Source: Candidatus Poribacteria bacterium
Lineage (GTDB): Bacteria; Poribacteria; WGA-4E; WGA-3G
Direction: 5' to 3'
NCBI GenBank assembly: GCA_965197475.1
Contig: CBDANF010000003.1
Span: 1,920,001-1,984,000 of the forward strand
DNA: 64,000 nt
A program made the translations under genes and the position numbers. This document shows positions 5,804-53,825 of the stretch, one piece after another (position 1 is the first letter of the stretch; every line of letters starts with the position of its first letter). The notes under the pieces are model-generated. The model saw only the letters and a program-made list of their open reading frames with translations. It ran no database searches and was not told the origin of the DNA.

Positions 5804-5853
5804 TCTTTTTAATTTAGAGCTTTAACGCATTACCGTTCGCGGAGAATCATAGT

Positions 5854-6423
5854 ATGACGCATTTGGAAACGCACGACCCTTTGCAGGATATATCCATTCC
5901 AGCACCTGGCACGATGACGTTAGAGGAATTCCTTGAGAACGATGTAGAAGGGTATGAATATGTGAAAGGAGAATTAATTCCTATGGCTGCAGCCTCAAGG
6001 AGACATGGTAGAATAAGTGTAAATATCCTACGGTATTTAGATCCGCAGGTCTATGAAAATAACCTGGGAGAATTGTATACATCAGAAACATCATTTAAGG
6101 TTGGAGAACGTGTGCTAAAACCGGATGTTGCGTTTGTTGCATCAGAACGGTTGGATGTAGACGAAGACAAAGGACTACCGATACCACCTGACCTTGCAAT
6201 TGAGGTGGTTTCTCCTTCAGATATTCATTCTCGTGTCATTGGAAAGGCACTTGTTTATCTGGATGCAGGCACACGCTGCGTTTGGATTGTTGACCCCGTA
6301 TCAAAAACCGTGACGGTGTATAAATCTGAGACAAACATCAAGACACTTACGCGTGAAGATACACTTACTGGGGATGATGTAGTCCCGGGTTTTTCCTGTC
6401 CGGTTGCACAACTGTTTGAGTAG
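5854..6423 (+). CDS. Uma2 family endonuclease
   Basis: YEYVKGELI, KPDVAFV, PPDLAIEVVSPSD, VWIVDP, VVPGFSC. Confidence 0.92.
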   Translation: MTHLETHDPLQDISIPAPGTMTLEEFLENDVEGYEYVKGELIPMAAASRRHGRISVNILRYLDPQVYENNLGELYTSETSFKVGERVLKPDVAFVASERLDVDEDKGLPIPPDLAIEVVSPSDIHSRVIGKALVYLDAGTRCVWIVDPVSKTVTVYKSETNIKTLTREDTLTGDDVVPGFSCPVAQLFE

Positions 6424-6433
6424 TGATAAGAAT

Positions 6434-13114: not shown

Positions 13115-13590
13115 GATTATCTCCATTTTGTTGCATAAACTTTAGTTTGTGGTGCATTCCGTTTCATTTCTAACAACCGGTTATGAGATATATGAAAATA
13201 ATTATACACTCTCACCTCAAGGTAGGTACGGTTTCCTAACTGCACCTTATTTTGCATAGAAAGATTGAAGGGGGTAAAAAAATTAGAGGGGGTAGGTTCG
13301 CGCGAATCCGATACTTTTGATTTTACTATTAAAACATGAAATTATATTTTTGTCAAGGAAAATATAACCGGTTATCATGAAGTCTATTGAAACTTGCACG
13401 GGTTTCACTTTATATAACGTTATGATAACATACGTCCGAAATTAAGTCAACCGTAATTATTCTTGTAGGAGGGGTTTGTAACCCCGATGCGACTGTTTGT
13501 AGTCGCGCAATTCATTGCGCCTCATACACCCAGTAGTAAGGCTTTTCTCTTGTGGGAGGGGTTTTCAACCCCGATGCCCGACACCGATAC

Positions 13591-13619
13591 TTGACACAAT
13601 TCTGCTACCATGCTATCCT
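13591..13619 (+). promoter_or_regulatory. Sigma70-type promoter of the methyltransferase gene, copy 2
   Basis: TTGACA-17 bp-TATCCT, 30 bp upstream of ATG 13650. Confidence 0.7.
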
Positions 13620-13649
13620 TTACCAAAAAAACACCGCAGGAAAACACCA

Positions 13650-15269
13650 ATGACACAAAACTTTCCCGACAACGCACTATACGAAATGGACAATCTCGAA
13701 GTGCTACGCGGCATGAACAGCGACACCGTACACCTCATCGCCACCGACCCGCCCTTCAACATCAAACGCAACCGAAGCGGCACAGCCGGACATTATGTAG
13801 ACAACTGGAAATGGGGAGACACCGGCATATTACCAGATCAGTGGAAATGGAACGAAGTGCATCCCAAATGGCTTGAAGAAATCAAAGACAACCACACCGA
13901 ACTATACCACGCCATAGACGCAGCCAAACACTGTCAAGGCGAAGATACCGCCGCGTTCTTATGCTTTCTCAGTGTTAGATTGATAGAAATGCACCGTATC
14001 CTAAAAGAGACGGGTAGCATCTATTTGCATTGTGACCCTACCGCAAGCCACTACATCAAAATGTGCTTGGATGCGATCTTCGGTAGAAAAAACTTTAGAA
14101 ATGAAATCGTGTGGAAGCGTCAGACAGCAAATAATGCTGTTTCTAAGAAATATGGTCGTATTGTGGACTACCTGCTTTTCTATACGAAGGGCAACAAATA
14201 CACATGGAATCAGCAATACGGTGCCCGATCCGAAAACGCTCAAAAAGAGTTCCGACACAAAGATGCTGACGGTCGGGTGTACAGAACTCACGATCTCACG
14301 GCCCCAGGCAGAGATGCTAATCGAATGTTCGAATGGCGAGGAACAATTCCCTATCGAAACTGGGCATATTCAAGAGAAACGCTTGATAAGATGTTGTCCA
14401 AGGGTGAGATTCTCTTGCGAAAAGATGGAACGGTGTCAGCAGCACGAGGACACAAGATATATCTTGACGAGCAACCTGGGGTGAAGTTGCAGACGATTTG
14501 GGATGATGTGGCAAAAGTAGGCACATCTAAAGAACGCACCGGCTCACCAGACCAAAAACCGGTCGCCCTTTACAAACGGATAATCAAAGCGTCATCCAAC
14601 GAAGGCGACCTTGTCCTAGACCCGTTCTGCGGATGTGCAACAACGATCATCGCAGCAGATGATCTCAAACGTAGGTGGGTAGGTATAGACAGGCGCGTAG
14701 ATGCCCGCTACCACATCATAACGCGTCTGATGGGTATTAGCAAAAAAGAACGCGAACGAATAGAGGAATACGCTACAGATAAAAATTGGTTGGATAGACA
14801 AACAGCAAAATATGAAATTCACTACCAAACAGCGCCGCCCGTCCGTACCGATGACCCCGAGACAACGTCCCCTGAATTATCCCATGTCTATCAGCACCAT
14901 CTCGAACCGCTGCACAGCCATGCCGAGATGCACCAAATCCTTGTCGATCAGTTCGGATTGAAATGTTGGGGGTGTAACTTTGTCCCTCCCGACAAACGCT
15001 ATTTACACCTTGACCATATCGTCCCAAAAAGCGATGGCGGCACCAACGACATAGACAATCGCGCGCTCTTATGCCAACCGTGTAATAGCAAAAAATCTAA
15101 TACGATGAGTCTCACGTCGCTACGCAGACAAAACAAAAAGGAAGGATATATCCAACAGGGCGAAGCGATAGATCTCCCGGCTGCTTTAGCGTGGACGCGA
15201 TCCCTTTTAGTCCAAACACTCCGCGAAACACCCTATCAAGGACCACTACCGCTTGAAAGTGAAAGATAG
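13650..15269 (+). CDS. Beta-class amino DNA methyltransferase (N6A/N4C) fused to a C-terminal HNH endonuclease domain
   Basis: DPPF motif IV precedes LDPFCGCATT motif I; FRNEIVWKR; QKPVAL; C-terminal CWGC...HLDHIVPKSDGG...N..LLCQPCNSKK. Confidence 0.9.
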   Translation: MTQNFPDNALYEMDNLEVLRGMNSDTVHLIATDPPFNIKRNRSGTAGHYVDNWKWGDTGILPDQWKWNEVHPKWLEEIKDNHTELYHAIDAAKHCQGEDTAAFLCFLSVRLIEMHRILKETGSIYLHCDPTASHYIKMCLDAIFGRKNFRNEIVWKRQTANNAVSKKYGRIVDYLLFYTKGNKYTWNQQYGARSENAQKEFRHKDADGRVYRTHDLTAPGRDANRMFEWRGTIPYRNWAYSRETLDKMLSKGEILLRKDGTVSAARGHKIYLDEQPGVKLQTIWDDVAKVGTSKERTGSPDQKPVALYKRIIKASSNEGDLVLDPFCGCATTIIAADDLKRRWVGIDRRVDARYHIITRLMGISKKERERIEEYATDKNWLDRQTAKYEIHYQTAPPVRTDDPETTSPELSHVYQHHLEPLHSHAEMHQILVDQFGLKCWGCNFVPPDKRYLHLDHIVPKSDGGTNDIDNRALLCQPCNSKKSNTMSLTSLRRQNKKEGYIQQGEAIDLPAALAWTRSLLVQTLRETPYQGPLPLESER

Positions 15270-18646: not shown

Positions 18647-19576
18647 TTATCTCTGGAACCCTGATATTGTCGGGTTTCGCTGCGCTCTACCCGACCTACG
18701 AACTTTAGATTTTATTATAGACCAGTAACAACACACAATTAAAACGTTATAATGTCTAATGTGTCCCCACGTGACGCTCAGATGATTTGATGTAGGACTG
18801 ACATCAAGTCCTTGAGCATTCATGTTTTTCTGTACTTCTGCTCCTGTGAGCGCGCGTTCATAGATGCGGAATTCGTCGACATATCCCTGAATAGCATCGG
18901 CATTGACACCGTCAGAACGATCTCCAATAGCAAGTTTAAGTCCGCCTTTTGGGAGTTTACCTCCTGGAACCGCATACTTTTTCTCTTGTTTTCCGTTTAC
19001 ATAGTAGTGAACTGTCGCACCATCGTAGGTGCCGACAAGATGGATCCATTGCTCAAGCGGGATGTCCTCCAGCACATTATGTTGTGCTGCCTTTGTTTCT
19101 TGACCCCCAGCTCTTATGAAAAAACCGTGCTGGTTGTCGTCATCATCATAATACAGACTGGCAACTGCACTATTTGTTGGCTGGTCGTCAAGTGAGATAA
19201 TTCGATTCCAACTATCATCTAAAGCAGTGATATAGACCCAACACTCCAATGTGATTTCATTCCAATCACGGTCAATTTTCGGTGGATCTGAATCCTCAAC
19301 GAGTAAATTATCATCAACACCGTCAAATAGGATACACTCTCCAACTTTACAATCGGCAGCAAGGGCAAGTTCAGGGTCACCTTTGACAATAGCGGATAGT
19401 CCAGAGAATATATCCTCTGCCTGTTTTGCGATTTGCACTGTGTCTTTATCAAACGACCAGTAAGCAACTAAGCCATCTTCAACTGCGCCAACGATAGCAT
19501 CTGCAGGATGTGTTAATACTGTGAAAAACACGAAAAGTATCAAAATTGCGTAGCCTAATGTTGTTTTCTGGATCAT
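18647..19576 (-). CDS. Secreted LamG-like (concanavalin A) domain protein
   Basis: Signal peptide, LVAYWSFD, WIHLVGTYDG, GYVDEFRIYERAL, tail VSPTSNHLSVTWGHIR; the 3' end runs on into a REP. Confidence 0.88.
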   Translation of the reverse strand: MIQKTTLGYAILILFVFFTVLTHPADAIVGAVEDGLVAYWSFDKDTVQIAKQAEDIFSGLSAIVKGDPELALAADCKVGECILFDGVDDNLLVEDSDPPKIDRDWNEITLECWVYITALDDSWNRIISLDDQPTNSAVASLYYDDDDNQHGFFIRAGGQETKAAQHNVLEDIPLEQWIHLVGTYDGATVHYYVNGKQEKKYAVPGGKLPKGGLKLAIGDRSDGVNADAIQGYVDEFRIYERALTGAEVQKNMNAQGLDVSPTSNHLSVTWGHIRHYNVLIVCCYWSIIKSKVRRSGRAQRNPTISGFQR

Positions 19577-25953: not shown

Positions 25954-26755
25954 ATGAAGTATTTTATAACAATGGGTATTATGGTGCTTGTTGCTGTCTG
26001 TTTGCTGATCGTTCCAACCCATGCCGCTATAAATCCCGACAATATCATGGGAATGTGGCTCTTTAATGAGGAGAACGGCGACACGGCAAAAGATTCGTCA
26101 AACAACAAGAATGATGGTAAAATCAACGGTGGTGCCAAGTGGGTTGATGGTAAGTTTGGGAAGGCACTTGAATTTGATGGAACAGACGATTGGGTTGAAG
26201 TTCCGCATTCAGACAGTCTTGGGTTTTCAAAAGGGACTTCTTTTTCTATCACGCTCCACTATAAAGGCACAAAAATAGGTGGTTCTCTCGTAGGCAAAAA
26301 CTATGAAGACACAACGCAGGCAAAACCTTGGTATCTTCTTTGGAACGGAGGAGTGGGTAATACAATATCCATCTATCTGCGTACTAATAATGACCAGAAT
26401 TCAAGAATTGATGGAACGTTGAATGTATCAGATGATAATTGGCATTTTATTGCTGCAATAGCAGATACGGATACAGAGAAGATTTCATTGTAGATTGATG
26501 GAGAAAAGAATGTTGAGGGTAACATGAATACCACCGATGGTTACGGAACTAGTGAAGGTGTGTTTCATATTTGGACATCATTCTGACAGGTATACCGCTG
26601 GCATCATTGACGATGTCACACTCTTCAATATCGCCTTAAGTGAAGACGAGATGGAAACTATCATGAACAATGGTGTTGAAGAAGTTGCGGTTGTTGACGC
26701 TATTGGCAAACTTACAACGACATGGGCTACAATTAAACATCGTGTATCTCAATAG
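25954..26755 (+). pseudogene. LamG-like domain protein with an in-frame TAG and a +1 frameshift
   Basis: ISL*IDG (TAG 26491-26493 where Y is expected); frameshift near 26572 (FHI/GHHSDRY); tail KLTTTWATIK. Confidence 0.8.
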
Positions 26756-26858
26756 AATTCATAAATAAATGTGGATACTGACACGAACATAAGTTTGTTC
26801 GTGCCAGTATTCTCAATAATATTATGAAGCAAACCACAAGTTAAAGGAACATATAATC

Positions 26859-27953
26859 ATGAAACAGATATTGACACTCCTTGCATTGGCGTTTTTGCTA
26901 TTTGCTGGATTAAGTTGTCAGGAAACCACAGAAGACCCAGATCCAATAGTTGACACATTAACGGGCAGCCTCCAAGGGGAGGTGCAATCAATTGAAGGCG
27001 TATCAATTCAGGTGCGCTTGTTAAAAGACGGACAACTCGTCGCGCAAACCGAAGCAGATGGAAGTTATGAGTTTGTTGAGTTTGAAGAAGGTGATTACAC
27101 GATTCAAATATCAGCAAAAGGCTATGAAATGACAGAAATGAACGTGACTGTCGTGGCGGGGGAAACTGTTTCATTGGACAAAGTGACACTGGAGGCGTTG
27201 GCGGAACCAGTATCACACCTGCGCGGCATTTTAACAGATATGAAAACAGGAAATCCACTGTCCGATGTGCTTGTGCGACTTACCGATAAAGCGGGTGAAG
27301 CGAACGAAGCGTTAACGACTAAAGAAGGTGTTTTCACCTTTGAGAATCTTCCAGTAGATCAAGCATTTACCTTGACGATCATGCATGCAGGTTATGAAGA
27401 TCACGAAGTTGCCGTGCAACCGATTCCCGCTGGTGAGACCTTTGAACAAAATATAGAACTCACCACAGGACCTGAACCGGTGGAACTGGATCCTGGTGAA
27501 GGGCTAAGCACCGGCAGCCAGGCACCAGCTTTTGAGTTGCCTGACGGTAAAGATAAGAAACATGCACTTGCAGATTATATTGGTAGCAAAAAGGTAGTAA
27601 TCGTGTTTTACCGGGGCAGGTTCTGACCGTATTGCCGCGAGCAACTCGGTGAGTTGCAAAAAAAATACGATAAAATTCAAGCTGAAGGCGCAGAACTTAT
27701 CGCTATCAGTTCTGATAGCGTAAAAGAAACGAAAAAGACGACTGATGATGGAAATCTCAAGTATCTGGTACTAGCTGATAATGACATAGAAACGATTAAC
27801 GCTTACAATGTTGTTGATCCAGCGAACAAGAGAATAGCACGAGCATCAAGTTTTGTCATAGATCTGGATGGGAAAATCACGTGGGTATCACTTGACGAAT
27901 GGGATCAGCGCGTACCAACTGCCGAAATTATATCAGAATTAGGTAAGTTCTAA
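26859..27953 (+). CDS. Selenoprotein 1: lipoprotein, two carboxypeptidase-regulatory-like beta-sandwich domains plus a peroxiredoxin-like (AhpC/TSA) domain, UxxC (364 aa, U256)
   Basis: ORFs 26859..27626 and 27654..27953 are in one frame across TGA 27624-27626: VFYRGRF-U-PYC-REQLGELQ; lipobox GLSC (C20). Confidence 0.9.
27641..27657 (+). promoter_or_regulatory. Putative SECIS hairpin 1
   Basis: GCAACTC-GGT-GAGTTGC, 14 nt after TGA; possible lower stem cgtatt/aatacg (27628 / 27664). Confidence 0.82.
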
Positions 27954-28142
27954 TGAATTTTACGATACGGCAACAACAAACACCCGTGCCGACAACGGTA
28001 GAAATAGCGTGGTAAGCAAGTACGTTTACGATGCTAATTCCTGAGTCGGCTCGGACTATTGAAGAGAGTAATACGCTTAGGGGTTGAGGGACGCGTATAA
28101 CCTGAAACACTACAAAACAGATTTTAAATAGGAGTTTTAACT

Positions 28143-29258
28143 ATGGAACGCGTATTGACACCCCTTGGATTAGGACTTTTACTTTTGGTTGCATTGGGTT
28201 GTGGGACGGCGGATAATCCCGTCAGTAAGATTACAGAAATTGAGACTACAACAGGCGCACTACGAGGAAAGGTACAACCAATTGATGGCGTATCATTTCA
28301 GTTCCGCTTATTAAAAGACGGACAACTTGTGGCGCAAACAGAAGGAGATGACGACTTCGTACTAAGAAAGATTGAAGCAGGGGATTACACACTCCGTATC
28401 TCAGCTCAAGGCTACCAAAAAACGGAACTCAACGTGACTGTTATAGTGGGGGAAACTGTTTCATTAGATGAAGTGGTACTTGTGGAATTAGCAGAGCCTG
28501 TCTCGCAACTACATGGGCTTTTAAGGAACGCGAGAACAGGAATACGGCTTCGTAAGGTACTTATCACACTTAGCGATGAGGCGGGAAAAGAATATGAGAC
28601 GTTGACGACAAATGAAGGTGTTTTCACTTTTGAGAATTTGCCCACTTTACAGACATTTATCTTAACAGTCAAGTACGCCGATTACAAACAATACGAACTC
28701 ACGGTGGAACCCATACCTGCCAACGAGACGGTTAAATTGTATATCAAACTTACACCATTGGTGAAAGCAAGGGAATTGGAACCCCTGGAGCCCGGCGAAG
28801 GCTTAAGGATCCATAGCGATGCACCAGAATTTGAATTACCTGATGGCAACGGTGTGTTGCACACACTCGCGGACTATCTTGAAGATGGCAAAAAAGTGGT
28901 ACTTGTCTTTTATTGGGGCAGTGGGTGAGCTGCTTGTCTAACGCAACTCGGTGAGTTGCAAAAGAATTATGACAAAATTCAAGAGGCAGACGCTGAAGTA
29001 ATCGCTATTAGTGTTGATACTATAGCGGAAACAAAACAGACAGTTGAAAATGAAGGTCTTGAGTTCCCGGTACTCTCTGATCAGGAAATGGAAGCAATTT
29101 CCGCTTACAATGTAGTAAATCAAGAAAACCGCAACGTTGCACGACCAGCTACTTTTATTATTGAGTCAGATAGAACAATTGCATGGGTATCTCTTGATAC
29201 TGTGAATGAGCGGGTACCAATAGCAAAAATTCTTATGGAATTAGGTAAACTTTGGTGA
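28143..29258 (+). CDS. Selenoprotein 2: paralogous lipoprotein, beta-sandwich domains plus peroxiredoxin-like domain, UxxC (371 aa, U262)
   Basis: In-frame TGA 28926-28928: VFYWGSG-U-AAC-LTQLGELQ; lipobox ALGC (C20). Confidence 0.88.
28943..28959 (+). promoter_or_regulatory. Putative SECIS hairpin 2
   Basis: GCAACTC-GGT-GAGTTGC, 14 nt after TGA. Confidence 0.82.
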
Positions 29259-29268
29259 AATCTTTTAA

Positions 29269-29655
29269 AACGTGAGTTCGACAAATGCCGTAGGTTGGGT
29301 AGAACAACGTGAAACCCAAAAGGTTGAATTGTTGGGTTTCGCTGTGCTCTACCCATAGGTGTCAATTTAGTGTGCTATATGCAAAAAAGATGCTGATTTG
29401 TGATGAAAGCAGCCCCAGCGGGGCAGCATGCGCGCATGGCATGCTGCATGAGGTGTCTGACAACACGTACACATACACACCTTTCGCCCCGCTGGGGCTT
29501 GAGTTTGGTAGGGGTCGCGTGTCTGGACACCTTTCGCCCCGCTGGGGCTTAGATATCTGAAATATAGGTTTATTTCCTTAAATTGACACCTATGGGTTTC
29601 GCTGTGCTCTACCCAACGGACATCTACATTTGGAACTTATTATTGAACTCACGTT
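29269..29655. mobile_element. REP-carrying MITE (TIR aacgtgagttc) with a second element nested at 29356-29592
   Basis: Outer element is the reverse complement of 56851-56990; inner TIR taggtgtcaattta/taaattgacaccta flanked by a 23-bp direct repeat tgggtttcgctgtgctctaccca. Confidence 0.8.
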
Positions 29656-29693
29656 TTTAAAAACTAATACATACATAAAGGGGTTGTTAATAC

Positions 29694-30260
29694 ATGAAAC
29701 AGACGCAGATATTCTTTGCGTTGGCACTTTTTCTGTTGGGTGCTTTGAGTTGTGGAACAACAGATAATCTTATCAATCAACCGGAAAAGTTGGAGCCGGG
29801 TGAAGGATTGAATATTGGTAGTCAAGCACCAGATTTTGAGTTGCCAGATGGAAACGGTGCGTTACATGCTCTTGCGGATTATATTGGAAACGACAAAAAG
29901 GTGGTAATCGTCTTTTACCGAGGCGGTTGGTGAGGGTCGTGTCTAACGCAACTCGGCGAGTTGCAACAGAACTACGGAAAGATTCAAGCTGCAAACGCAA
30001 AACTTATTGCTATCAGTTCCGATGATGTAAACGCGACACAAACGACGGTTGAAAATAAAGGACTCATATATCCTGTGCTTGCAGATAGCAACAAAGACGT
30101 GATTAACGCCTACAACGTCCTTGATCAAAGCGACACAACTATAGCAAGACCTGCATCTTATATTATTTCGCCGGATGGAACGGTTGCCTGGAAATCGATT
30201 GATACTGCGGCTGTACGGGTGCCAACAGCTACAATCCTCACAGAATTAGGTAAACTCTAA
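29694..30260 (+). CDS. Selenoprotein 3: short lipoprotein with the peroxiredoxin-like domain only, UxxC (188 aa, U80)
   Basis: In-frame TGA 29931-29933: VFYRGGW-U-GSC-LTQLGELQ; lipobox ALSC (C20). Confidence 0.9.
29948..29964 (+). promoter_or_regulatory. Putative SECIS hairpin 3
   Basis: GCAACTC-GGC-GAGTTGC, 14 nt after TGA. Confidence 0.82.
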
Positions 30261-31375
30261 TGAAGTCTTACGATAAGGTAATAGAAAACATTATTGCAGA
30301 CAGTGAAGCGGCAGCACTTAAGCAAGGGACGCTCAACCGCCGCCAATTCCTAAGTCGTATTGGTACTATTGGCGGTGTTGCGCTTAGCGCAGTTCCTGCA
30401 TTCGCGCAAATTGGTGGTGGACGGGTGCTAACCCCTACGACACAAATCGCGGCACTTACACCGGTTGTTGAAGTGATCGGGAAACAAGTTTGGGAAAACG
30501 ATAGACTCAACGAAGATGCTGTTAGCGAGATGGTTGACCGAGCGATGATGAAACTCACTGGTCGAGATACTGCTAAAGAAGCGTGGCGAGACTTTGTACT
30601 GCCGGACCATATTGTCGGCATAAAAATTAACCCGCTTGCCGGTCCAAAGTTAAGCACACACTCCGTGGTCGTCAATAAAATTATTGAGGGTTTATTCAGT
30701 GCGGGCGTTCTCAGAAAACAGATAATTATTTGGGATCGATTTGAGGAACATCTGCTTAATGCCGGCTATCCGATTAAGACAGATGAAGGGGATGTGCGGA
30801 CGCTCGCGTCTGATATGGACGACATCGGCTACGATGATGAAGTGTTCTATGAAACTGAAAAAGATAGTGTTACCAGACGAGAGAATGAAAGCACCCGTTC
30901 TCGATATTCGCGAATTGTCACAGAACAGGTAGATGTGGTTATTAATGTGCCTATCTTGAAACAGCATGATATGGCGGGTGTGAGCGGGTGTTTAAAAAAC
31001 ATGGCTTTCGGCAGTGTGGATAACACGCGGCGATTCCACGGTAAACCGCTTTACTGCAATCCTGCTATTGCCGAAATTTTTGAGCATAAGGTACTGAAAA
31101 AGAAGATCGTTCTAAATATTGTTGATGGATTGGTAGCGTCATTTGATCAAGGACCGACATATCATGCTGAAAGCACGTGGCAATATGGTGGGTTGTTTGT
31201 GAGTGCTGACCCCGTCATTCTTGATACGCTTATCCTTCAAACTGTTAATCAAAAACGCGAAGAATTGGGATTAAGTTCTATGTCAAAATATGCTAACCAC
31301 ATCACCTCAGCAAGCGGTCTCGATTTGGGCAAAAACTCACTTGACCAGGTCAATCTTCAGAAAATTGAGGTATAG
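30260..31375 (+). CDS. DUF362 domain protein with a twin-arginine signal
   Basis: LNRRQFL plus hydrophobic stretch; VGIKIN, INVPILKQH..AGVSGCLKN, ADPVILD; start overlaps the upstream stop (TAATG). Confidence 0.85.
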   Translation: MKSYDKVIENIIADSEAAALKQGTLNRRQFLSRIGTIGGVALSAVPAFAQIGGGRVLTPTTQIAALTPVVEVIGKQVWENDRLNEDAVSEMVDRAMMKLTGRDTAKEAWRDFVLPDHIVGIKINPLAGPKLSTHSVVVNKIIEGLFSAGVLRKQIIIWDRFEEHLLNAGYPIKTDEGDVRTLASDMDDIGYDDEVFYETEKDSVTRRENESTRSRYSRIVTEQVDVVINVPILKQHDMAGVSGCLKNMAFGSVDNTRRFHGKPLYCNPAIAEIFEHKVLKKKIVLNIVDGLVASFDQGPTYHAESTWQYGGLFVSADPVILDTLILQTVNQKREELGLSSMSKYANHITSASGLDLGKNSLDQVNLQKIEV

Positions 31376-31379
31376 TTTC

Positions 31380-31622
31380 ATGAAACGTAAATACATCTCT
31401 ATGCTTATTCTGTTGAGCGTGCTTCTAATCACAGTTGTATTCTCAGGATGCACCGTGACATTTACTCCTAACGACGCGCTGCAGTTTAACCTCTCGGAAC
31501 CGACGGATAAAGCGGTATCCCTTGTTGCGGAATTTGAATCGGGTGAAGAGGATAACGTTGCTGGTGATGTCACACAGAAGACGGGCAGTGTGTGTGCTGG
31601 CGGGGCATGCATCATCTATTGA
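31380..31622 (+). CDS. Small lipoprotein (80 aa) with C-terminal CAGGAC motif
   Basis: Lipobox FSGC (C24), acidic linker, ends GSVCAGGACIIY; ATG 4 nt after the DUF362 stop. Confidence 0.72.
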   Translation: MKRKYISMLILLSVLLITVVFSGCTVTFTPNDALQFNLSEPTDKAVSLVAEFESGEEDNVAGDVTQKTGSVCAGGACIIY

Positions 31623-31630
31623 ATAAGGGT

Positions 31631-31863
31631 TCATTTTCCTTTATTCTTGATCTCTGCTTTTCTCTTAGCAGCGATTTTCTCCCAATCCCATAATAAAACT
31701 GTACCATCATCGCTGCCACTTGCAAGCGTTTTACCATTTCCAAGACGTGCAATTGCCCCTTCAGGTAAACCGACTTGTGTGTTGTCTTGGGCAAAGCTGG
31801 TTGAGAACATCGCTGCTATCAATAGGAACAGGAACGTGATGAAAAAAGTCTATTGGTTCTCAT
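31631..31863 (-). pseudogene. Internally deleted WD40 gene remnant
   Basis: N-terminal AQDNTQVGLPEGAIARLG joined directly to C-terminal GKTLASGSDDGTVLLWDWEK; frameshift in a T run of the signal peptide. Confidence 0.8.
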
Positions 31864-31866
31864 GCG

Positions 31867-34197
31867 TCAATCTCCTTTTTGAGATGGTTGGCTTTCCTCA
31901 TTGGTATTCTCGTGTTTAAGGTTGCCTTTCTGATCAAACTTGAAGGTGCCCGATCCTACACCCTCAACACGAATCTTGAGAACGCCTCTTCTGTCAACCG
32001 TGACATTGACATCATTAACCCTCATTGTACCTCCACCTGAACCAGAAATTGTGGAACTACTTCCATTATGTGTTAGTCTGTATCCTAACCGAAGTTCCTT
32101 AACTTGATAACCGTTCTTATTCAACCAGTTTATTATTGCTTTTGCTTCCTCATTTTTTCCTGCGTATTTTATCGATTTTTGCGGAGTTAACAAACTTCTG
32201 TCAAGGTCTTTTCCTATGTTATCAATTCTTGCTTTAGCAACGATTTTGTCCCAATCCCATAATAGTACTGTACCATCCTCACCCCCGCTATCGAGTATTT
32301 TCCCGTCATGTGAAAACACAAGCGTTTCTACCGATTCTGTATGTCCGGATAGCATTCCCAAACTTTTACCTGTTTCTACATCCCATAACTTAATTGGAGT
32401 GCTCCACATATCCATTCCAGACCCAATAAGAATGGTACCATCAGGTGAAAATACCAATTCATTTTTAAATCCATCTAAATTACCTGGGATTAAGGTAGGT
32501 CCGTCTTCTGATTCTGTGTCTAATTTCCATAAGTGAATACCGTCCCTGCTTACCGTTGCAACCACAGAACTGTCGGGTGAAAATGCCAACGCACTTGTAC
32601 CCTTGATATTGGATGGTGTGATATCACGCTGTGTAGAAATATCCCAAACTTGTGGGTTGCGATGTTCACTTATCGCAGCGAGTCTTTTTCCATCAGGTGA
32701 GAACATCAACTTCCCCCTGAACATACGTTCTTTTGTGTTAAGTTGGAACAATTCAATTCCGGTATTCAGGTGCCACGCTCGAATTTCTTGGCGACTGCTT
32801 CCAGCAAGCATGTTGTCCGGTGAGAATCCAACTGCTGAAGACCAGTTGGCAACTTCCTGCAAAGGAGGGGAAAGTTTTTCGCCTGTCATTATATTGAATA
32901 ATTGAAGAGAGTTAGTACCTCCAGCTCTACTATGCATTCCGAATCCAACCGATTTAAACGCAATCATACCTTCGCTACCACAACACGCAAAAAACTTAGC
33001 ATTTGGTGATAACGCGACTGTCTCGGTGGCATCGCTATGTGCAGCAGAGAAGGTAGACAATTCCTGCCGAGTCTTGAGGCTCCATACATCTACAGTGCCA
33101 TTAAAGGCTGCACTCGCGAGGGTCCCACTTTCTGAAAATGCGACTGCTTTTACCCATTCTGTATGTCCAATGGTAAAAGTAGTAAATTCCTCTCCGTTCT
33201 CTGGATTCCAGAAACGGATTGTTCCATCTGCACTGCCACTGGCAAGACACATACCATAAAGAGGTGTTCCCAAAGGTGCAAAGGCTAAGGCATTGATGGT
33301 GTTTTTGTGTCCCATAAGAGTGGCACGTTCTTGTTTTGTGTCTAAATCCCAGAGTTTGATTACCTTACCAGCATCACCACTGGCAAAAGTATTTCCGTCC
33401 TCTGAGAATGCAACAGCGGTAACCCACGCTGCATGTCCTTTTAGCGTCCCAAGTTCGGCGTGGTTTTGGGTATCCCATAATTTCACAGTTTTGTCCTCAC
33501 TTCCGCTGGCAAATAGTTTTCTATCCGGTGAGAACGCTAACGCCAAAATAGCTGTGTCTCTGCCACGCGCATGCCCCTTGAGAGTTCCCAGATGGCTTTT
33601 CGTGGTTGTGTCCCATAGGTGAATTTCTCCGCCTCGGTCTGCCCGAGCAAGATTGTTGCCATCTTGAGAAAAAGCAATCTTATCGGATAAATTATCTATA
33701 TTGGACTCCGATAATTTTTCACCGGTGTCAGCATGCCAATAGGTCATTTCCTGACCTCTATTTATACTGATTAGTGTCCTGCCATAGAATACCAATGCAG
33801 ATAACACTGTGGGACCCCGAGTTAATGTAATCGTTGAGAGGTTGCTTTTAGTTTCTACGTCCCAAATTTGGATAATAGGGTTGTTAAATCCGCCGCTTGC
33901 GAGCATTTTTCCATCTGGCGAGAATGCAAGTGCGTTCACATGCCCTGTATGTCCAGTGAATAAAGCTGTCTCTTTTCCATTTGGTACGTCGTATAGCCAA
34001 ACTCCAACATCCGTACCAACAGCAAGGCGCGTGCCATCCGGTGAAAACTGCATAATATTGATCCCGCCTTTTCCGAGCCGTGCGATTGCACCTTCAGGTA
34101 AACCTACTTGTGTGTTATCTTGGGCAAAACTGGTTGAGAATATCGCTGCCGTAAATAGAATAGTTAGTAATAATGTGTGTCTATATTTCATTTTCAA
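31867..34197 (-). CDS. Secreted WD40-repeat protein
   Basis: Signal peptide, LPEGAIARLGKG, many GH...LAFSPDG..LASG..D.TV.LWD repeats. Confidence 0.95.
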   Translation of the reverse strand: MKMKYRHTLLLTILFTAAIFSTSFAQDNTQVGLPEGAIARLGKGGINIMQFSPDGTRLAVGTDVGVWLYDVPNGKETALFTGHTGHVNALAFSPDGKMLASGGFNNPIIQIWDVETKSNLSTITLTRGPTVLSALVFYGRTLISINRGQEMTYWHADTGEKLSESNIDNLSDKIAFSQDGNNLARADRGGEIHLWDTTTKSHLGTLKGHARGRDTAILALAFSPDRKLFASGSEDKTVKLWDTQNHAELGTLKGHAAWVTAVAFSEDGNTFASGDAGKVIKLWDLDTKQERATLMGHKNTINALAFAPLGTPLYGMCLASGSADGTIRFWNPENGEEFTTFTIGHTEWVKAVAFSESGTLASAAFNGTVDVWSLKTRQELSTFSAAHSDATETVALSPNAKFFACCGSEGMIAFKSVGFGMHSRAGGTNSLQLFNIMTGEKLSPPLQEVANWSSAVGFSPDNMLAGSSRQEIRAWHLNTGIELFQLNTKERMFRGKLMFSPDGKRLAAISEHRNPQVWDISTQRDITPSNIKGTSALAFSPDSSVVATVSRDGIHLWKLDTESEDGPTLIPGNLDGFKNELVFSPDGTILIGSGMDMWSTPIKLWDVETGKSLGMLSGHTESVETLVFSHDGKILDSGGEDGTVLLWDWDKIVAKARIDNIGKDLDRSLLTPQKSIKYAGKNEEAKAIINWLNKNGYQVKELRLGYRLTHNGSSSTISGSGGGTMRVNDVNVTVDRRGVLKIRVEGVGSGTFKFDQKGNLKHENTNEESQPSQKGD

Positions 34198-36328
34198 TTT
34201 CCTTTGTTTTCTTTTGCTTTGGAGATGATTTTTTCCCAGTCCCAGAGGAGAACGGTGCCATCTTGGCTACCACTCGCGAGTATCTTCCTATCGTGTGAAA
34301 ATACTAATGTTTCTATCGGTTGTGAATGTCCTAACAGGATTCCTAATTTACAACCTGAATCTACATCCCATAATTCAATTTCATCATCCCAAGCATCCGA
34401 TTTTGGATCAAGAAGGATTCTTCCATCGGGTGAGAAAAGTAACATGTTACCTCTCCAATCAAATTTTTTAGGACGAATTTCTGTACGTACCTGCATGCCT
34501 GTATGTGTCACACTGCACAAATCAATGCCTTTAATATGTTTGATAGCAAGCAGAGAACTATCAGGTGAAAATGCAATTCCCGTTACCCAATTGATGTCAG
34601 GCGGTGTAATTTTGTGTTGCGTGAAAACATCCCACACTTCTGGCTTAGAACCAGACCCAGACATAGCCAGGAACTTCCCATTAGGTGAAAACATCAATTT
34701 ACTTTCAAATGATGATAACGATTTAATGCGGAACATCTCAAGTCCAGAGTCAATGCTCCACAAACGTATACCTTGACGACGAGTACCGGCAGCAAGTATT
34801 TTTTTATCTGGTGAGAATGCAAGTGAATTCGGTTCCAGTGTAAGAGAGATAAGTTTGTCTCCTGTGGGTAGAAGCCATAGATGCGTTTCTTTATGTGGTT
34901 TTGAAGTCGCACGTGTGTTTCCACTAATTGAACGTACAATAGTATCAGCACCGTGGCTTGCAAAAAGCGTGGCATCCGCCGTGAAAGCAGATGCTTCAGT
35001 TTTATCGTGATGCGCGATCGATGGAATTGGTAGTTGTCGTCCAGTTTTTACATTCCACATTTGCACTGTACCATTAGATGCTGCACTGGCAAGCGTTGTA
35101 TTATCCGTAGTGAATGCCACCGCCTTAACTCCCGACGTATGTTCTGTGGTAAAAATAGATTGTTCTTGCCCAGTATGTGTGTTCCAGAAACGTATTGTAC
35201 CATCCCAACTCCCACTGGCGAGGATATCTTTGTCAACAGGTGAGAACGCTAAGGCTCTAATGCTGCTCTTATGTCCTGTAAGCATAGCCTTCTGTTCTCC
35301 TTTTTGAACATTCCACAAAAGTATTCGGTTAGCTGTTCCACCGCTTGCGAGTATTGTACTGTCGGGTGAAAAAGCCAATGCATCAACCTTTTCCGTATGT
35401 CCCTTAAGAACAGCACGTTCGGTGCTCGTAGTAGTATCCCATAATCGTACAGTATTGTCATCATGTCCTTGCAACAGTTTTCCTGTCCGGTGAAAATGCC
35501 ACTTGCAACAGTTTTCCTGTCCGGTGAAAATGTAAGTGCATTAACCCCTTTTTGAGGTATCCGCTTTTTCCACGACAGTAACGCGAATGGGGTTTTTGCT
35601 TTGAAAATAGCTAGTTGATACCCTGTGACTGCATCCCATAAGCGGATTTTGCCATTTTCTGGATCACCACTTATAAAGGTTTTATTATCATGGGTAAATG
35701 CTATTAGGTCGCGATAATGTTCGCCATAATAGCCATCTTCCAGTGGCTCATTATCAGCACTTCTACCCTTGTGCTTAGTTATAAGTTTACCGTCGGTAAC
35801 ATCCAAATGGTAAATACAGCTGAATTGGTTGGGAGTAATAAGGGTTTTACTATCCTTAGAAAATGTCATCGCTGGCACACCATCACTACTGCTATATAAA
35901 GGTATGTATAAAAGTTCATTACCAGTTTCGATTTCCCACAGACGTATAACTGAGTTTGATGATCCACCGCTTGCGAGTATGCGATTGTCAGGTGAAAACG
36001 CTAAGGAGTCCACTTGCGCGATTGTATGTACATTCCATTCTTCAAGTACTACCGATTCGATTTCATGATTGTTGACACGAGTTGGCTGCGCGGGGAACAA
36101 AGCCTTAGCGTTACGGGTATTCACATCGTATAACCACACCCCGATGCTCGTTCCAACTGCAAGATACTTGCCATCAGACGAAAACTGCATCACATTTATA
36201 CTGCCTTTTCCGAGGCGTGCAATTGCACCTTCTGGCAGACCGCCTTGTGTGTTATCTTGAGCGAAAATAGTTGAAATTGGAACAAGACTCAGAACTATAA
36301 TTGAGATATATGTATATATTCGGCTCAT
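34194..36328 (-). pseudogene. Secreted WD40-repeat protein frameshifted by a 31-bp duplication
   Basis: cttgcaacagttttcctgtccggtgaaaatg at 35468 and 35502; removing the extra copy restores TFSPDRKTVASGHDDNTVRLWD. Confidence 0.85.
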
Positions 36329-44381: not shown

Positions 44382-45599
44382 GTGATAATTATGAGGATTG
44401 AATGGGAAAACAATTGGGGTGAACCAATAGATGAATCTGAGACTTGGAAACTCCGAAATCACACTTTTGAACTTCTACGAAAATATGCTCGTGAACATTA
44501 CTCAATTTTGAAAAAAATCAAGGAGCGAGAATATGAGGTCGAAGGACTTGCTACAAGACACATAGCAAAAGAAGTGGACTTACCAGAAGGTAGTGGGCTA
44601 TATACGTTGGAACGTGTTCATAAGGAAATTTGTGAAGAACAAGGGTGCCATACCGAACGCGCAAAGATATTTCGTGCTGCGATGGCGTGGTCGGAAAAGC
44701 GTGACGAGATAGACAAACTTAAACAGAAAGCACAAGAGGTATTATATTATTATCAATATTCGGGGTTCTGTTATCCCTGGTATCACCTGAATATAGAAAT
44801 AGACCCGTGGGATTATAGAGAAGAGTATGAAGCAAGAACTTCATTAGAGCACACTATAAGAGATGTTATGACAGAACACAACGACGATTGGGATAAAAAC
44901 TATCAGTTCAGAGAGGATCTTGAGATTTTTTTAGGTGTCCTTGCATCACAGCGTTGCTGTATCAGAGGAGTTTTTGAAAGTTCTTTTCTTTGTATGAACA
45001 TCAATAGATACTTAGAAAATCCTTCGTGGCATTCTCCTGAAATAACTGATTTCCTTTTGGTAGATATTATTGATACAAATCTTATTGATTTGGAAAGAAC
45101 TTATCATTTTGGCTTATTTCCTGCCAATTTGGCAGAACAGATTCATAACTTTATTATTCCTCCACAATTCTCCACAAAATTAGAAGAGTCTAATAAACGT
45201 TATATCCGCAGAGGTTCGCTCGTTTTTGGGATATTATTCGCGATAATGTCAGTAGTAAGAAATTATATGACAGTTCAACATAAAAGCTGGTGGGTTTTTG
45301 ATAAAGTTGAAGGTCCTTGGCAACTTGAACTCATAAATGTTTTGATCGAAATGGGGCTATTTGGAACATGTTCAATCGTAATATGGAGTTTTCTAAAGTT
45401 GTACCTACCTCTAAAAAAGCGGGCTGCGTATAAGGGACTTGAAAAACTTGCTCGGAAATTTACTAAGATCCGTTTTGAGATTACCTCGGAGACTTATCAT
45501 GCAAAGAGATTAATTGAAAGACTGCAAAAGTTGGAAGAGCAAGATATAGTGATACATAGTTTAACTTACGCCTTATTAGAATTGCGTGCAAAACAATGA
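44382..45599 (+). CDS. Hypothetical protein with two C-terminal TM helices
   Basis: 405-aa AT-rich ORF; no recognised family. Confidence 0.7.
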   Translation: MIIMRIEWENNWGEPIDESETWKLRNHTFELLRKYAREHYSILKKIKEREYEVEGLATRHIAKEVDLPEGSGLYTLERVHKEICEEQGCHTERAKIFRAAMAWSEKRDEIDKLKQKAQEVLYYYQYSGFCYPWYHLNIEIDPWDYREEYEARTSLEHTIRDVMTEHNDDWDKNYQFREDLEIFLGVLASQRCCIRGVFESSFLCMNINRYLENPSWHSPEITDFLLVDIIDTNLIDLERTYHFGLFPANLAEQIHNFIIPPQFSTKLEESNKRYIRRGSLVFGILFAIMSVVRNYMTVQHKSWWVFDKVEGPWQLELINVLIEMGLFGTCSIVIWSFLKLYLPLKKRAAYKGLEKLARKFTKIRFEITSETYHAKRLIERLQKLEEQDIVIHSLTYALLELRAKQ

Positions 45600-45626
45600 A
45601 CCTACGAGAAGTCTAGAGGAGGAAGC

Positions 45627-46820
45627 ATGGAAAAACGCCCACAAATTGCTGCAATTGCGACAATATACCACAAATACTCACACGCGCAACACATCGTCGA
45701 TCGATTTTTGGAAGGATACGGGTGGAATAGTCGGCACCATTATCCACCGATGGACCTCGTCTCGCTATACGTTGAACAGGTCAAGGACAATGATCTCAGC
45801 CGTGACCGATTGGAACGTTTTCCCACAGTGAAGGGATATCCAACAATCGCGGAGGCACTCACCCGCGGCGGCGAGGAATTGACTGTTGATGGCGTTCTGC
45901 TTATCGGGGAACACGGTGAATATCCCTCTAACGAAAAGGGACAACGTCTCTATCCGCGTTATGAACACTTCAAGCAGATGGTTGAGGTTTTTGAGCGGAG
46001 CGGGCGTGGGGTGCCGATATTCAACGATAAACACCTCTCATGGAATTGGGAGTGGGCACGTGAAATGTACGACATCTCTCAAAACATGGACTTCGCGTTT
46101 ATGGCGGGGTCTTCACTGCCTGTTACGTGGCGCACGCCTTCAATTGACATGCCGCGCGGCATTCGTGTATCAGAAGCGGTGTGTGTTGCTTACGGTGGTG
46201 TGGATAGTTACGATTTCCACGCTTTAGAGACGTTGCAGTGTATGGTAGAACGACGCGAAGGCGGTGAAAGTGGAGTAAAATGGTTACAGACATACCGTGG
46301 CGATGCGTTTTGGCAAGCACATCATTCTGAACTTTGGTCGCGAGAACTCTTTGAATCTGCGCTCTGTCGGAGTCATACGCTTACACCATCACGCCAAGGG
46401 TTTAACAATCCGTTTCCCACGTTAGACGAGATGAAGGAGATTGTGAAAGACCCGATAGCGAATCAATATGAACATCACGATGGGCTTAAGTCTACCATGA
46501 TTCTGATGAACGGGTTGGTGCAGGATTTCAACTTTGCCGCGTATATCGGATCGGACAACGAAACTCTTTCAACGCAGATGTATCTTCCAATGCCACCCGC
46601 ACGGACAACATTGGCAAACTTCTTCTCGCCTTTGGTGAACAATATTGAGAAAATGTTTTTGACAGGTAAAGCGACCTATCCGGTTGAACGCACGTTATTG
46701 ACAACGGGGCTTGTTGCATCAGGTGTTGACAGCCTCTTTGCCGATGGTGCAAAACTGGATACACCGCATCTGGACATCGCCTATCAACCCACTGAAGACT
46801 CAACTTTCTGGAGGACATGA
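45627..46820 (+). CDS. Conserved hypothetical protein, putative oxidoreductase (paralog A)
   Basis: SHAQHIVDRFL.GY, DGVLLIGEHG.Y, PIFNDKHLS, AGSSLPVTWR, YPVERTLL. Confidence 0.75.
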   Translation: MEKRPQIAAIATIYHKYSHAQHIVDRFLEGYGWNSRHHYPPMDLVSLYVEQVKDNDLSRDRLERFPTVKGYPTIAEALTRGGEELTVDGVLLIGEHGEYPSNEKGQRLYPRYEHFKQMVEVFERSGRGVPIFNDKHLSWNWEWAREMYDISQNMDFAFMAGSSLPVTWRTPSIDMPRGIRVSEAVCVAYGGVDSYDFHALETLQCMVERREGGESGVKWLQTYRGDAFWQAHHSELWSRELFESALCRSHTLTPSRQGFNNPFPTLDEMKEIVKDPIANQYEHHDGLKSTMILMNGLVQDFNFAAYIGSDNETLSTQMYLPMPPARTTLANFFSPLVNNIEKMFLTGKATYPVERTLLTTGLVASGVDSLFADGAKLDTPHLDIAYQPTEDSTFWRT

Positions 46821-50044: not shown

Positions 50045-51030
50045 CGCTCATGTCAAGAGTAAGTGCTTTTGACGAGTTTTGCTATAAAATCAACACTGAC
50101 AGCTTTTAGATTCATGACGAACTCACAGATTGCGACGTAACCGGCGAGGAACTTTTTATGAACGCCACGAAAGGGACGAAGGAAGTTTCGCAGCGTCGTC
50201 CAGGCACCTTCAATCGTCCTTGTATGGATCTCGTAAAGACCATCACCGTCTGCGTCTCTTGCCCACTCGCCATCCTTATGGAGAACAATCTCACGGGCGC
50301 GCTGAATACGGTTATAGCCACGCCAACCATCCGTATACACCGTTGAAGTCGGCAACGTCCACTGATGAACGTGTGTTGAAAGCGTCGCAGAATCGGTGTG
50401 CCGCACAACACGTAATCTCAGGAGACCGCTTTCGCGACCTTTCGTCCCAACAATAGGCGGACGATCATTGTCATAAGTCCCATGTCCCCTGCGTTTATTG
50501 CCACGCCGACGCGGCGGATCCGAAGCATCAACGTGCTTATCGCCTTTTTCACCGGCGTTTTGAAACATCTCATCTGTTTCGACTTCAGCATCAGGTAAAG
50601 CAGCTTCGGGTTGTATCTGCTCTGCCGAAGTTTGGAGTTTACGTCTTATAGAAAGAACGGTTTGACGACTTAGACCCAGTTCACACCCGAGTTGTGCACT
50701 TGAAACACCTTGACAGACACCGCGCAAAAGCAGAACGACCTGTGAGGGACGAAACTGCGTGCCAGCAAAGACCGTCCCGGTATAGAGGTTGTAGATGCTC
50801 TCACAGTGTTTGCAGCGATACACTTGTAGACCACTTGTTTCAGTCGGACGGAACTTGCGTGCCTCCGCCACGCTCGCTTGGCATTTTGGGCAACACAGCC
50901 CTTGAAGGTGGAAATGATCCAACACCCACGCTTGAGTTTTTTCTTCATCCAGGAGAGATTGTATTGGAAAGTCCATAGGTAACACGCTAACATAACTTTG
51001 AAAAAATAGCACTTACTTTTTACATGAGCC
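50045..51030 (-). mobile_element. IS1595-family insertion sequence (transposase 50053..51012)
   Basis: Zn ribbon CPKC/CKHC, VETDE, VYTDGW, IEGAW; TIR gctcatgt.aa.agtaagtgct; 8-bp TSD aagttttt. Confidence 0.9.
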
Positions 51031-51038
51031 AAGTTTTT

Positions 51039-52129
51039 CAGGACTTACGCAATAATCTACAATTATGTTATACTGTTCTATTATGACTACATTTACACTT
51101 TCTAAAAAGAAGCACCACTTATTTTCTGATTATTGTCAATTTTTGTTAGCGAGTTTCACTAATTTTACACAAACCTATTTTGCAAACCATACGGAGAAGT
51201 GGAGCCATGATCAACTCAATCGTTTCCTGAGAAACGAAAACATTCCTTCAAGCGAACTCTGGGAATCTGTCAAAGACGACATTGCGTTTGATAAAGATGG
51301 ATACCTTATCTTTGACGATGTTGTGCTGTCAAAAATATATTCAAAACTGATTGAAGCTGCCTACCCTCAATGGAGTGGTAGCGACAAAAAGGTCATTGAA
51401 GGCATCGGTATTGTCACGTGTGTCTATGTTAACCCAAAGACACACGAGTATTGGATCATTGATTACCGCATTTTTGACAAAGACCCTGATGGTAAATCCA
51501 AAATTGATCATTTACTTGATATGTTGCACGATGCTTACTTCAAGAAACAACTCTCGTTTCGGACAGTGCTAATGGATGCTTGGTATGTATCCATGAAAGT
51601 AATGAAAGCGATTGCGGCACTTTCCAAGGTCTACTATGCGCCCCTGAAACGAAACAGGCTTGTAAATGATACGGATGGTGTTGAACCGCACCAGCAAGTC
51701 CAAGATTTATCTTGGTCTCCATCAGAAACGACACAAGGCAAACGCGTGCATATCAAAAGGTTTCCAAAAGGGTATCAAGTGAAGTTGTTCCGGATTGTGT
51801 CTGATACAGGACGCACGGAATATATTGTGACAAACGATTTATCTCAATCGGATGCGAAAGCGACAAAACAACAGTGTCGGGTTCGCTGGAAGATTGAGCA
51901 ACTTCATCGTGAAATCAAACAATTAACCGGTATTGACAAATGTCAATGCCGCAAACTGCGTGCCCAACGAAACCATATTGCGTGTTGTTTCCAGGTCTGG
52001 GTCTGCTTGAAGCGTGCTGCCCGGAAAATCACTCAAACGATTTACGAACTCAAACAAAGTTTATTGGATGATTACGGACGACATCAACTCTCTAATCCTT
52101 CAATAATCTTCAAAACTGCGTAAGTCCTG
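51039..52129 (+). mobile_element. IS701-family insertion sequence (transposase 51065..52123)
   Basis: IFDD, LMDAWY, RWKIEQLHREIKQ; TIR caggacttacgca; TSD gttttt. Confidence 0.9.
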
Positions 52130-53740: not shown

Positions 53741-53825
53741 TTTAATTTGGTTTTCGGCATGATATGTGGTATCATTTAAAGAGAAAATCATTTATCATTT
53801 CACGAGTCACTATAGGAGGTTTTTA

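Follow-up and report, generated by a model that had tools for sequence, protein, structure and literature searches.

Do six consecutive open reading frames (ORFs) in a Poribacteria genome represent broken genes, or three genes in which an in-frame TGA is decoded as selenocysteine (Sec, U)? The question is raised by positions 26859-30260 (+ strand) of a 64,000-nucleotide stretch of Candidatus Poribacteria DNA (contig CBDANF010000003.1, positions 1,920,001 to 1,984,000 of the forward strand; hereafter the window), which under translation table 11 contain the ORFs 26859-27626 and 27654-27953, 28143-28928 and 28956-29258, and 29694-29933 and 29961-30260. We conclude with high confidence that the region comprises three functional selenoprotein genes, belonging to a Poribacteria-like, sponge-associated bacterium, and that they encode exported, probably lipid-anchored, peroxiredoxin (Prx)-like UxxC proteins.

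When the TGA codons are read through, the six ORFs merge into three, of 364, 371 and 188 amino acids, with one internal TGA each. A sequence-only reading of this DNA had paired the ORFs in this way and had placed the three codons (at 27624, 28926 and 29931) in one aligned position. Both the read-through ORFs and the protein alignment confirmed this assignment, as the codons share a single alignment column in the contexts FYRGRF-U-PYC, FYWGSG-U-AAC and FYRGGW-U-GSC (genes 1, 2 and 3, respectively). The genes and their recoded codons are as follows.

26859..27953, + strand: gene 1, 364 amino acids; signal peptide ending in Cys20, followed by two beta-sandwich (CarboxypepD_reg-like) domains and the Prx-like domain (U256-P-Y-C259); type 'a' orthologue
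27624..27626, + strand: Sec codon TGA of gene 1 (U256)
28143..29258, + strand: gene 2, 371 amino acids; signal peptide ending in Cys20, followed by two beta-sandwich domains and the Prx-like domain (U262-A-A-C265); extra copy compared with other genomes
28926..28928, + strand: Sec codon TGA of gene 2 (U262)
29694..30260, + strand: gene 3, 188 amino acids; signal peptide with Cys20 directly joined to a Prx-like domain with U80-G-S-C83; type 'b' orthologue
29931..29933, + strand: Sec codon TGA of gene 3 (U80)

A Shine-Dalgarno-like purine-rich stretch, read from the sequence, lies 8-11 nt ahead of the ATG in all three genes. Across the window, TGA terminates 12 of the 46 ORFs counted and stands in frame nowhere except in these three genes (17,046 codons), which rules out alternative genetic codes in which TGA specifies Trp or Gly; the long conserved genes recD2, mutS2, dnaG and rpoD are intact under table 11. 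Gene 2 itself stops with TGA (29256-29258), and the same gene thus has one TGA that is read through and another that terminates. A candidate fourth selenoprotein at 44382-46820, composed of two ORFs in one frame across a TGA, was rejected: the second ORF starts at its own Met nine codons downstream, and no family or motif bridges the TGA.

Conservation of the codon was assessed by scanning species-representative genomes with the alignment of the three paralogues. This yielded 80 loci. After six-frame translation in which TGA retained its own letter, every AhpC/TSA-like segment was aligned to gene 3. The Poribacteria set consists of 14 Poribacteria metagenome-assembled genomes (MAGs; loci L002-L015) and one uncultured bacterium with the same cluster (L001). 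All 24 copies of this set carry TGA at the Sec column (27/27 Poribacteria copies with the three of the window). Acidobacteriota, Eisenbacteria, Rokubacteria and two 'Clostridia' MAGs add nine copies with TGA there, which brings the total to 36 copies, drawn from the window and 24 loci (25 sources), with the frame and the coding sequence conserved on both sides. Neither TAA nor TAG was seen at this column in the 36 copies. A Bacteroidia relative (L021) has TGC, and the other, more distant relatives among the scanned loci are ordinary peroxiredoxins or TlpA-like proteins.

The database matches of gene 3 (n = 79) fall into several classes: 24 are full-length with Cys at the Sec column (FYRGGWCP[YFH]C, 28-42% identical), 41 are N-terminal pieces stopping just ahead of this column, 3 are C-terminal pieces starting just past it, 8 are full-length with Trp at the column, and 3 lie outside the classification pattern. 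The Trp in the eight forms (P0006-P0013, public metagenome proteins) is probably a TGA translated under code 4 by the gene caller, which would hide the Sec codon, because these proteins are 58-66% identical to L014, whose DNA reads TGA there, and none of their contigs exceeds 1,580 bases. Of the 285 relatives of gene 1 in the database, the best 120 are all cut short immediately ahead of the Sec column and bear the names 'hypothetical protein' or 'redoxin domain-containing protein'. Mis-annotation of the family is thus systematic, and the suspicion that standard annotation would report fragments was justified. Taken together, the TGA in 36 copies, the Cys-for-TGA homologues (24 of the 79 protein matches and the TGC of L021) and a downstream hairpin with frozen synonymous sites bear out the view that the codon is recoded and that the genes are not decaying.

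This hairpin, which resembles a bacterial selenocysteine insertion sequence (bSECIS), follows the codon in each of the three genes.

27641..27657, + strand: SECIS-like hairpin of gene 1, GCAACUC-GGU-GAGUUGC; separated from the UGA by 14 nt (stem) and 21 nt (loop)
28943..28959, + strand: SECIS-like hairpin of gene 2, GCAACUC-GGU-GAGUUGC
29948..29964, + strand: SECIS-like hairpin of gene 3, GCAACUC-GGC-GAGUUGC

The bSECIS model in the legend to Fig. 2 of PMC13188914 specifies a loop of 3-9 nt with G in its two initial positions, a stem of 4-16 bp, a UGA-to-loop distance of 16-37 nt and a minimum free energy (MFE) of at most -7.5 kcal/mol. Checked by hand, the hairpins agree with all four constraints: the loop has 3 nt and starts with GG, the stem has 7 bp, the loop lies 21 nt from the UGA, and the MFE is -14.0, -10.5 and -13.1 kcal/mol for genes 1, 2 and 3. 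The stem codons are near-fixed in the 27 Poribacteria copies (CAA 26/27, CTC 27/27, GAG 27/27, TTG 26/27), whereas in comparison columns other conserved Leu residues use three to five codons and other conserved Glu residues favour GAA. Judged from this codon usage, the stem is selected at the RNA level. In the alignment of the 36 sequences, 89.9% of the pair cells are paired, compared to at most 48.7% with slid partners, and one compensatory pair (A-U to G-C) is present in four sequences. The segment following the codon folds at a mean of -9.34 kcal/mol in the 36 TGA copies versus -6.07 kcal/mol in 57 non-TGA relatives, despite lower G+C (p = 4.8e-7, a value overstated as the sequences are related and not independent). 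The position of the hairpin is shifted in the non-Poribacteria copies.

All three proteins have a Cys20 that is invariant in the alignment after the hydrophobic N-terminus, as the sequence-only reading had noted. The ends of the signal peptides, GLSC, ALGC and ALSC in genes 1, 2 and 3, all fit a PROSITE-style lipobox pattern. In the Poribacteria loci, 23 of the 23 complete copies have a signal peptide ending in Cys, followed by G/S-T/S-x-D/E; a further copy is truncated where its contig ends. Plain signal peptides are present in the Sec homologues from outside Poribacteria; therefore, export is a trait of the family and the Cys anchor a trait of Poribacteria. Between the signal peptide and the redox domain, genes 1 and 2 have two CarboxypepD_reg-type stretches according to Pfam, which detects no such stretch in gene 3, in agreement with the two extra beta-sandwich domains that had been described for the first two genes only. 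The AlphaFold2 model of gene 1 (predicted local distance difference test (pLDDT) 87) has two all-beta domains, with strands at 35-105 and 119-201, ahead of the redox domain.

Nine related loci carry two tandem Sec genes. Type 'a' proteins (366-390 amino acids) have two beta-sandwich domains and the motif GGW-U-PFC; type 'b' proteins (274-295 amino acids) carry a single beta-sandwich domain, the motif being TGG-U-xxC or GGW-U-GSC. A maximum-likelihood tree built from the redox domains places gene 1 within type a and assigns genes 2 and 3 to the type b clade (support 93/96). L004b is the closest neighbour of gene 3, the redox domains being 80% identical, and the branch of gene 2 is long (0.48). 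Because the tree places the genes in this way, the window is best described from these sequences as the usual two-gene pair plus one extra, divergent copy, gene 2, which combines a two-domain N-terminus with a b-type redox domain. Sequence comparison further indicates that the beta-sandwich domain of gene 3 was lost through a clean in-frame deletion. The combination of triplication, lipid anchor and stalk-like domains, and the three different dipeptides between U and C, had been singled out as unusual. Neither point stood: Poribacteria as a rule have the tandem layout, the signal-peptide Cys and the beta-sandwich domains, and members of the family often differ in the residues that separate U from C. 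What is specific to the window is confined to the third copy and to the lack of beta-sandwich domains in gene 3.

The redox domains of all three proteins match Pfam AhpC-TSA (PF00578; E 8e-32, 1.2e-31 and 8.7e-33; 110.2, 109.7 and 113.3 bits versus a cut-off of 26), and all three contain the U-x-x-C motif (UPYC, UAAC and UGSC). By sequence they are closest to the BCP-type peroxiredoxin 2cx3 (E 8.7e-15), followed by ResA (2.6e-10). The model of gene 3 (pLDDT 90.4) has Bcp4 3hjp (E 2e-16) and AhpE 1xxu (template-modelling (TM) score 0.91 by target) as its best PDB matches, with TM scores of 0.88-0.91 by target against the two. The modelled fold is thus peroxiredoxin-like. The canonical peroxiredoxin motif PxxxT/SxxC is absent: only the peroxidatic Cys is kept, and the Pro is replaced by Arg (Trp in gene 2). 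In alignments with 2cx3 and with 57 non-Sec relatives, the peroxidatic Cys coincides with the second Cys, that of the UxxC motif, and Sec with the Thr/Ser three residues earlier. In the gene 3 model, U80 directly precedes the helix 81-92; such a helix-start position is that of the exposed, attacking Cys of the thioredoxin CxxC motif. At the cis-Pro position of thioredoxin-fold proteins, most copies have Pro and gene 1 has Ala. Because the peroxidatic Cys aligns with the second Cys, the motif is, as judged from the alignment, thioredoxin-type and not peroxiredoxin-type. The proposal that the TGA lies exactly at the attacking Cys is correct in the sense of the thioredoxin CxxC motif, but not in that of the peroxidatic Cys. 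Since Sec sits at the thioredoxin-type attacking position, we read the products as probable Sec-based thiol-disulfide (or sulfenate/peroxide) reductases, in which Sec would attack and Cys would resolve.

An alternative that concerns the function only is that the proteins are true peroxidases, with Sec attacking host- or seawater-derived hydroperoxides at the cell surface, and not protein thiol-disulfide oxidoreductases. This is a plausible alternative, if not the one we expect. Fold and sequence are closest to peroxiredoxins (BCP by sequence, Bcp4 and AhpE by structure), the second Cys occupies the peroxidatic position, and selenols are fast with peroxides. An Arg that is invariant in the Poribacteria copies (AR[PAS]) lies near the peroxiredoxin Arg position; however, it aligns one residue before the Arg of 2cx3. 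In addition, the Pro and the Thr/Ser of PxxxT/SxxC are replaced by Arg/Trp and Sec, most copies have the Pro at the cis-Pro position, and ResA-type oxidoreductases match too. Gene context also points away from a peroxidase. In L003 and L005, the most distant Poribacteria loci, a Cys-type TlpA/ResA-like WCxxC gene lies directly upstream of the single Sec gene (L003:5848-6399, with Pfam matches to AhpC-TSA, Thioredoxin_8 and Thioredoxin; L005 near 5757-6430, WATWCKPC) and occupies the place of the second Sec paralogue in the other loci.

Several results weigh against reading the three genes as functional genes for exported, lipid-anchored selenoproteins. First, the hairpin: a change on both sides was found in only one of the seven pairs, a count matched by 410 of 500 shuffles, and the covariation score was matched by 26 of 500 shuffles, so that support from covariation is weak. 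RNAalifold found no consensus structure for all 36 Sec-flanking sequences, and two of the three single-sequence folds were not significantly above shuffles (z -0.92 and -1.11). The stem encodes a conserved peptide, QL(G/V)ELQ, which is also present in some Cys homologues (P0039, P0075); part of the nucleotide conservation is therefore at the protein level. Second, the anchor: among the best 120 of the 285 gene 1 relatives, 74 have GLNC, with Asn before the Cys and no classical lipobox, and lipidation on Cys20, which we consider likely, is deduced from the lipobox pattern. Third, the curated NCBIfam selenoprotein and redoxin models (PrxU NF040737, SelL-related NF040769, ResA NF002854, WAxxUGC NF041054 and TUGYCR NF053656) all score far under their cut-offs, for instance 39-41 versus 270 for PrxU, 52-60 versus 170 for ResA, 18-29 versus 300 for WAxxUGC, and 36-42 versus 120 in a further example. 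Fourth, the machinery: selA, selB, selD and tRNA-Sec were not found within the window, nor was tRNA-Sec found in the 24 loci scanned for tRNAs. We infer the Sec machinery of this bacterium from phylum-level evidence. The available text of PMC13582414 counts Poribacteria among nine phyla with Sec-type group 4 hydrogenases, and that of PMC5649159 reports SelA and SelB in most sponge-symbiont bins; in Table S4 of the latter, Ca. Poribacteria WGA3G has SelA 2, SelB 1 and SelD 1 (columns counted for this analysis).

The machinery also bears on the residue that is inserted. The UGA could be recoded through SelB and SECIS but as Cys, by a tRNA of the SelC* (tRNA-ReC) type, or a suppressor could insert another residue, the products then being CxxC and not UxxC proteins. 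SelC* genes are known in genomes with Sec-type hydrogenases (available text of PMC13582414), the window holds nothing that separates Sec from Cys insertion, and eight database proteins have W at the column. However, a change of TGA to TGC or TGT would yield Cys without special machinery, yet 36/36 copies retain TGA; the W forms are most simply explained by the code-4 reading described above; and TGA elsewhere in the window is an ordinary stop. We consider insertion of a residue other than Sec improbable.

That the TGAs are real stops, owing to gene decay or assembly error or because N-terminal beta-sandwich lipoproteins are made alongside separately started C-terminal pieces, is barely credible: broken genes do exist in the window (a LamG gene interrupted at 26493/26537 and, at 34194-36328, WD40 ORFs that overlap), the table-11 ORFs have TTG starts 27-30 nt past each TGA and public databases list the pieces as separate proteins, but independent damage cannot have produced the same codon in the same column in 36 copies from 25 sources, frame and sequence are conserved across the TGA, a split would bisect the redox motif and the fold, and the second halves have no conserved start codon or ribosome-binding context, the nucleotides there being fixed as a hairpin.

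For three functional selenoprotein genes, as we favour, the following mechanism can be proposed. The 7-bp hairpin with its GGU or GGC loop, 14 nt past the UGA, would recruit SelB with Sec-tRNA(Sec), and the UGA would be read as Sec. A signal peptide of the secretory (Sec) type would export the proteins, and a probable lipid on Cys20 would tether them outside the cytoplasm. In the products of genes 1 and 2, the redox domain would be held on the two beta-sandwich domains, acting as a spacer or a binding module, and in that of gene 3 it would be attached directly. Sec, as an exposed nucleophile, might attack a hydroperoxide or, on an envelope protein, a disulfide or a sulfenate; resolution of the adduct by the Cys three residues further on would give a selenenylsulfide, which an extracytoplasmic reductant would recycle. 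Two downstream gene products, a protein with a twin-arginine translocation (Tat) signal and a DUF362 domain and a lipoprotein of 57 residues with a CxxxxC motif, may be partners or clients. These genes and the spacer that precedes gene 3 are listed below.

29263..29661, no strand: repeat-rich spacer insert; outer inverted repeat 29263-29284 / 29640-29661; outside the proteins
30260..31375, + strand: DUF362 protein; twin-arginine signal RRQFL; start overlaps the gene 3 stop by one base
31380..31622, + strand: small lipoprotein-like gene; mature part 57 amino acids, with the conserved C-terminus GSVCAGGACIIY

In 13 of the 15 Poribacteria loci, among them the distant L003 and L005, the Sec genes are followed by the DUF362 and small lipoprotein genes. 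The DUF362 orthologues have RRxF in 14/14 cases and the invariant residues C244, C266, H134, H164, H236 and H260. NCBIfam gave no match for the DUF362 protein or the small lipoprotein, and the protein-atlas matches of the former are DUF362 clusters only, one of which has a minority Lar_N label. The TGA that ends the small lipoprotein gene (31620-31622) was ruled out as a Sec codon, as 12 of 13 orthologues stop there with TAG or TAA. Two upstream LamG genes and the opposite-strand WD40 genes are common to closer relatives only. The conserved core suggests a common envelope redox task. We put forward, as a speculation that is more likely wrong than right, that the UxxC stalk lipoproteins are the catalytic part of an undescribed, Poribacteria-wide, selenium-dependent envelope redox module with the presumably co-transcribed DUF362 protein and the CAGGACIIY lipoprotein. 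In such a module, the UxxC proteins could, for example, maintain the CxxxxC pair, or else a metal or cofactor that is bound, in the reduced state within the oxidising sponge mesohyl. If this were true, the phylum would be wholly committed to Sec for the task, no Cys form being present in the 27 copies.

Other features of the window were recorded. The 435-nt spacer before gene 3 contains an insert of about 400 nt with a 22-nt bounding inverted repeat and nested palindromes. Its 22-nt core, GGGTTTCGCTGYGCTCTACCCA, occurs four times in the window versus 0 expected, twice inside the insert and also at 18672-18693 and at 56891-56912 (- strand), and the insert (29263-29661) looks like a REP (repetitive extragenic palindromic)- or MITE (miniature inverted-repeat transposable element)-like element of this genome. 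An Rfam scan of 26000-32000 with E up to 1 yielded nothing beyond two microRNA matches, which fall within the spacer and are due to chance. Directly upstream of gene 1, a LamG-like gene lies in two frames, 25954-26493 (ending with TAG) and 26537-26755 (+ strand); both halves match single intact proteins of 264-296 amino acids in related loci, which hold two in tandem, and the split gene is a frameshifted pseudogene or an assembly error. The WD40 ORFs 34194-35474 and 35249-36328 (- strand) overlap in different frames and look like one frameshifted gene, of which the upstream piece shares its signal peptide and N-terminus with an intact 776-amino-acid WD40 gene at 31867-34197. An ordinary Cys-type peroxiredoxin is encoded at 53766-54290 (+ strand; FYPLDFSPVC, AhpC-TSA E 2.3e-36), without an in-frame TGA. 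Three adjacent transposase genes at 50053-53545 (IS1595-like on the - strand, DDE_Tnp_1 and ISKra4-family) adjoin tRNA-Gly 54541-54612. The ORF 13515-15269 (+ strand) encodes an N6/N4 DNA methylase fused to an HNH endonuclease domain, with a Uma2-family endonuclease gene nearby (5854-6423, + strand).

The Cys-form 'peroxiredoxin-like family proteins' with FYRGGWCPYC (P0029, P0047, P0058, P0069 and others), for which we assume the CDD name PRX_like2, share the motif context and the domain with the window proteins at 28-42% identity. Unlike these, they have Cys in place of Sec and no beta-sandwich, and many have an N-terminal helical extension and no lipobox. Like PrxU, the window proteins have a peroxiredoxin fold and one Sec in the active-site helix region; however, the Sec of PrxU replaces the peroxidatic Cys (TxxU), whereas in the window proteins Sec stands in for the Thr/Ser, with the Cys retained (UxxC). 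With ResA, TlpA and StoA, and with the Sec form 'ResA-like WAxxUGC', they share export, membrane tethering and a thioredoxin fold with CxxC/UxxC at a helix start, but the motif context is FYRGxW-U-xx-C and not W-C-x-x-C, and the fold is nearer to BCP and AhpE.

The sequence-only reading had assigned the genes to a recognised class of UxxC AhpC/TSA-like selenoproteins, and this agrees with the literature. Table 2 of PMC2398784 has an entry 'Prx-like 1, pfam00578, UxxC', for which the Global Ocean Sampling (GOS) data gave 225 sequences with Sec and 2,740 homologues with Cys, and 'Prx-like thiol:disulfide oxidoreductase, PF00578, UxxC' is a row in a table of the 2026 review PMC13188914; the reference member is WP_010940744.1. 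The PF00578 domain, the U-x-x-C motif, the existence of Cys-form homologues and a SECIS hairpin inside the coding region are common to these proteins and to ours, and the available text also reports selenoprotein genes in tandem and in operons. In contrast to them, the proteins described here have a signal peptide with a lipobox-like Cys and 0-2 CarboxypepD_reg-like domains ahead of the redox domain, and their genes form arrays of two or three copies in a conserved cluster with genes for DUF362 and the small CxxxxC lipoprotein. The family is already known and is abundant in marine metagenomes, and the window genes are further members in a new architecture. The combination of an anchor Cys, 0-2 beta-sandwich domains and the UxxC domain appears to be new, as do the occurrence of the Sec form only, in every Poribacteria copy found, and the conserved cluster with DUF362. 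In the accessible full-text literature on selenocysteine and selenoproteins in Poribacteria we found nothing on these genes; the fusion-protein supplements of the GOS paper might hold similar fusions.

These results leave the understanding of Sec decoding and of UxxC chemistry unchanged. Public collections keep this family almost only as stumps, and recognising the recoding restores a set of conserved envelope redox enzymes in Poribacteria. The cluster of UxxC, DUF362 and small CxxxxC lipoprotein genes provides a defined setting in which to study the DUF362 family. For Poribacteria, a widespread and uncultured phylum of sponge symbionts, an exported and apparently obligatory use of selenium is added to the known biology.

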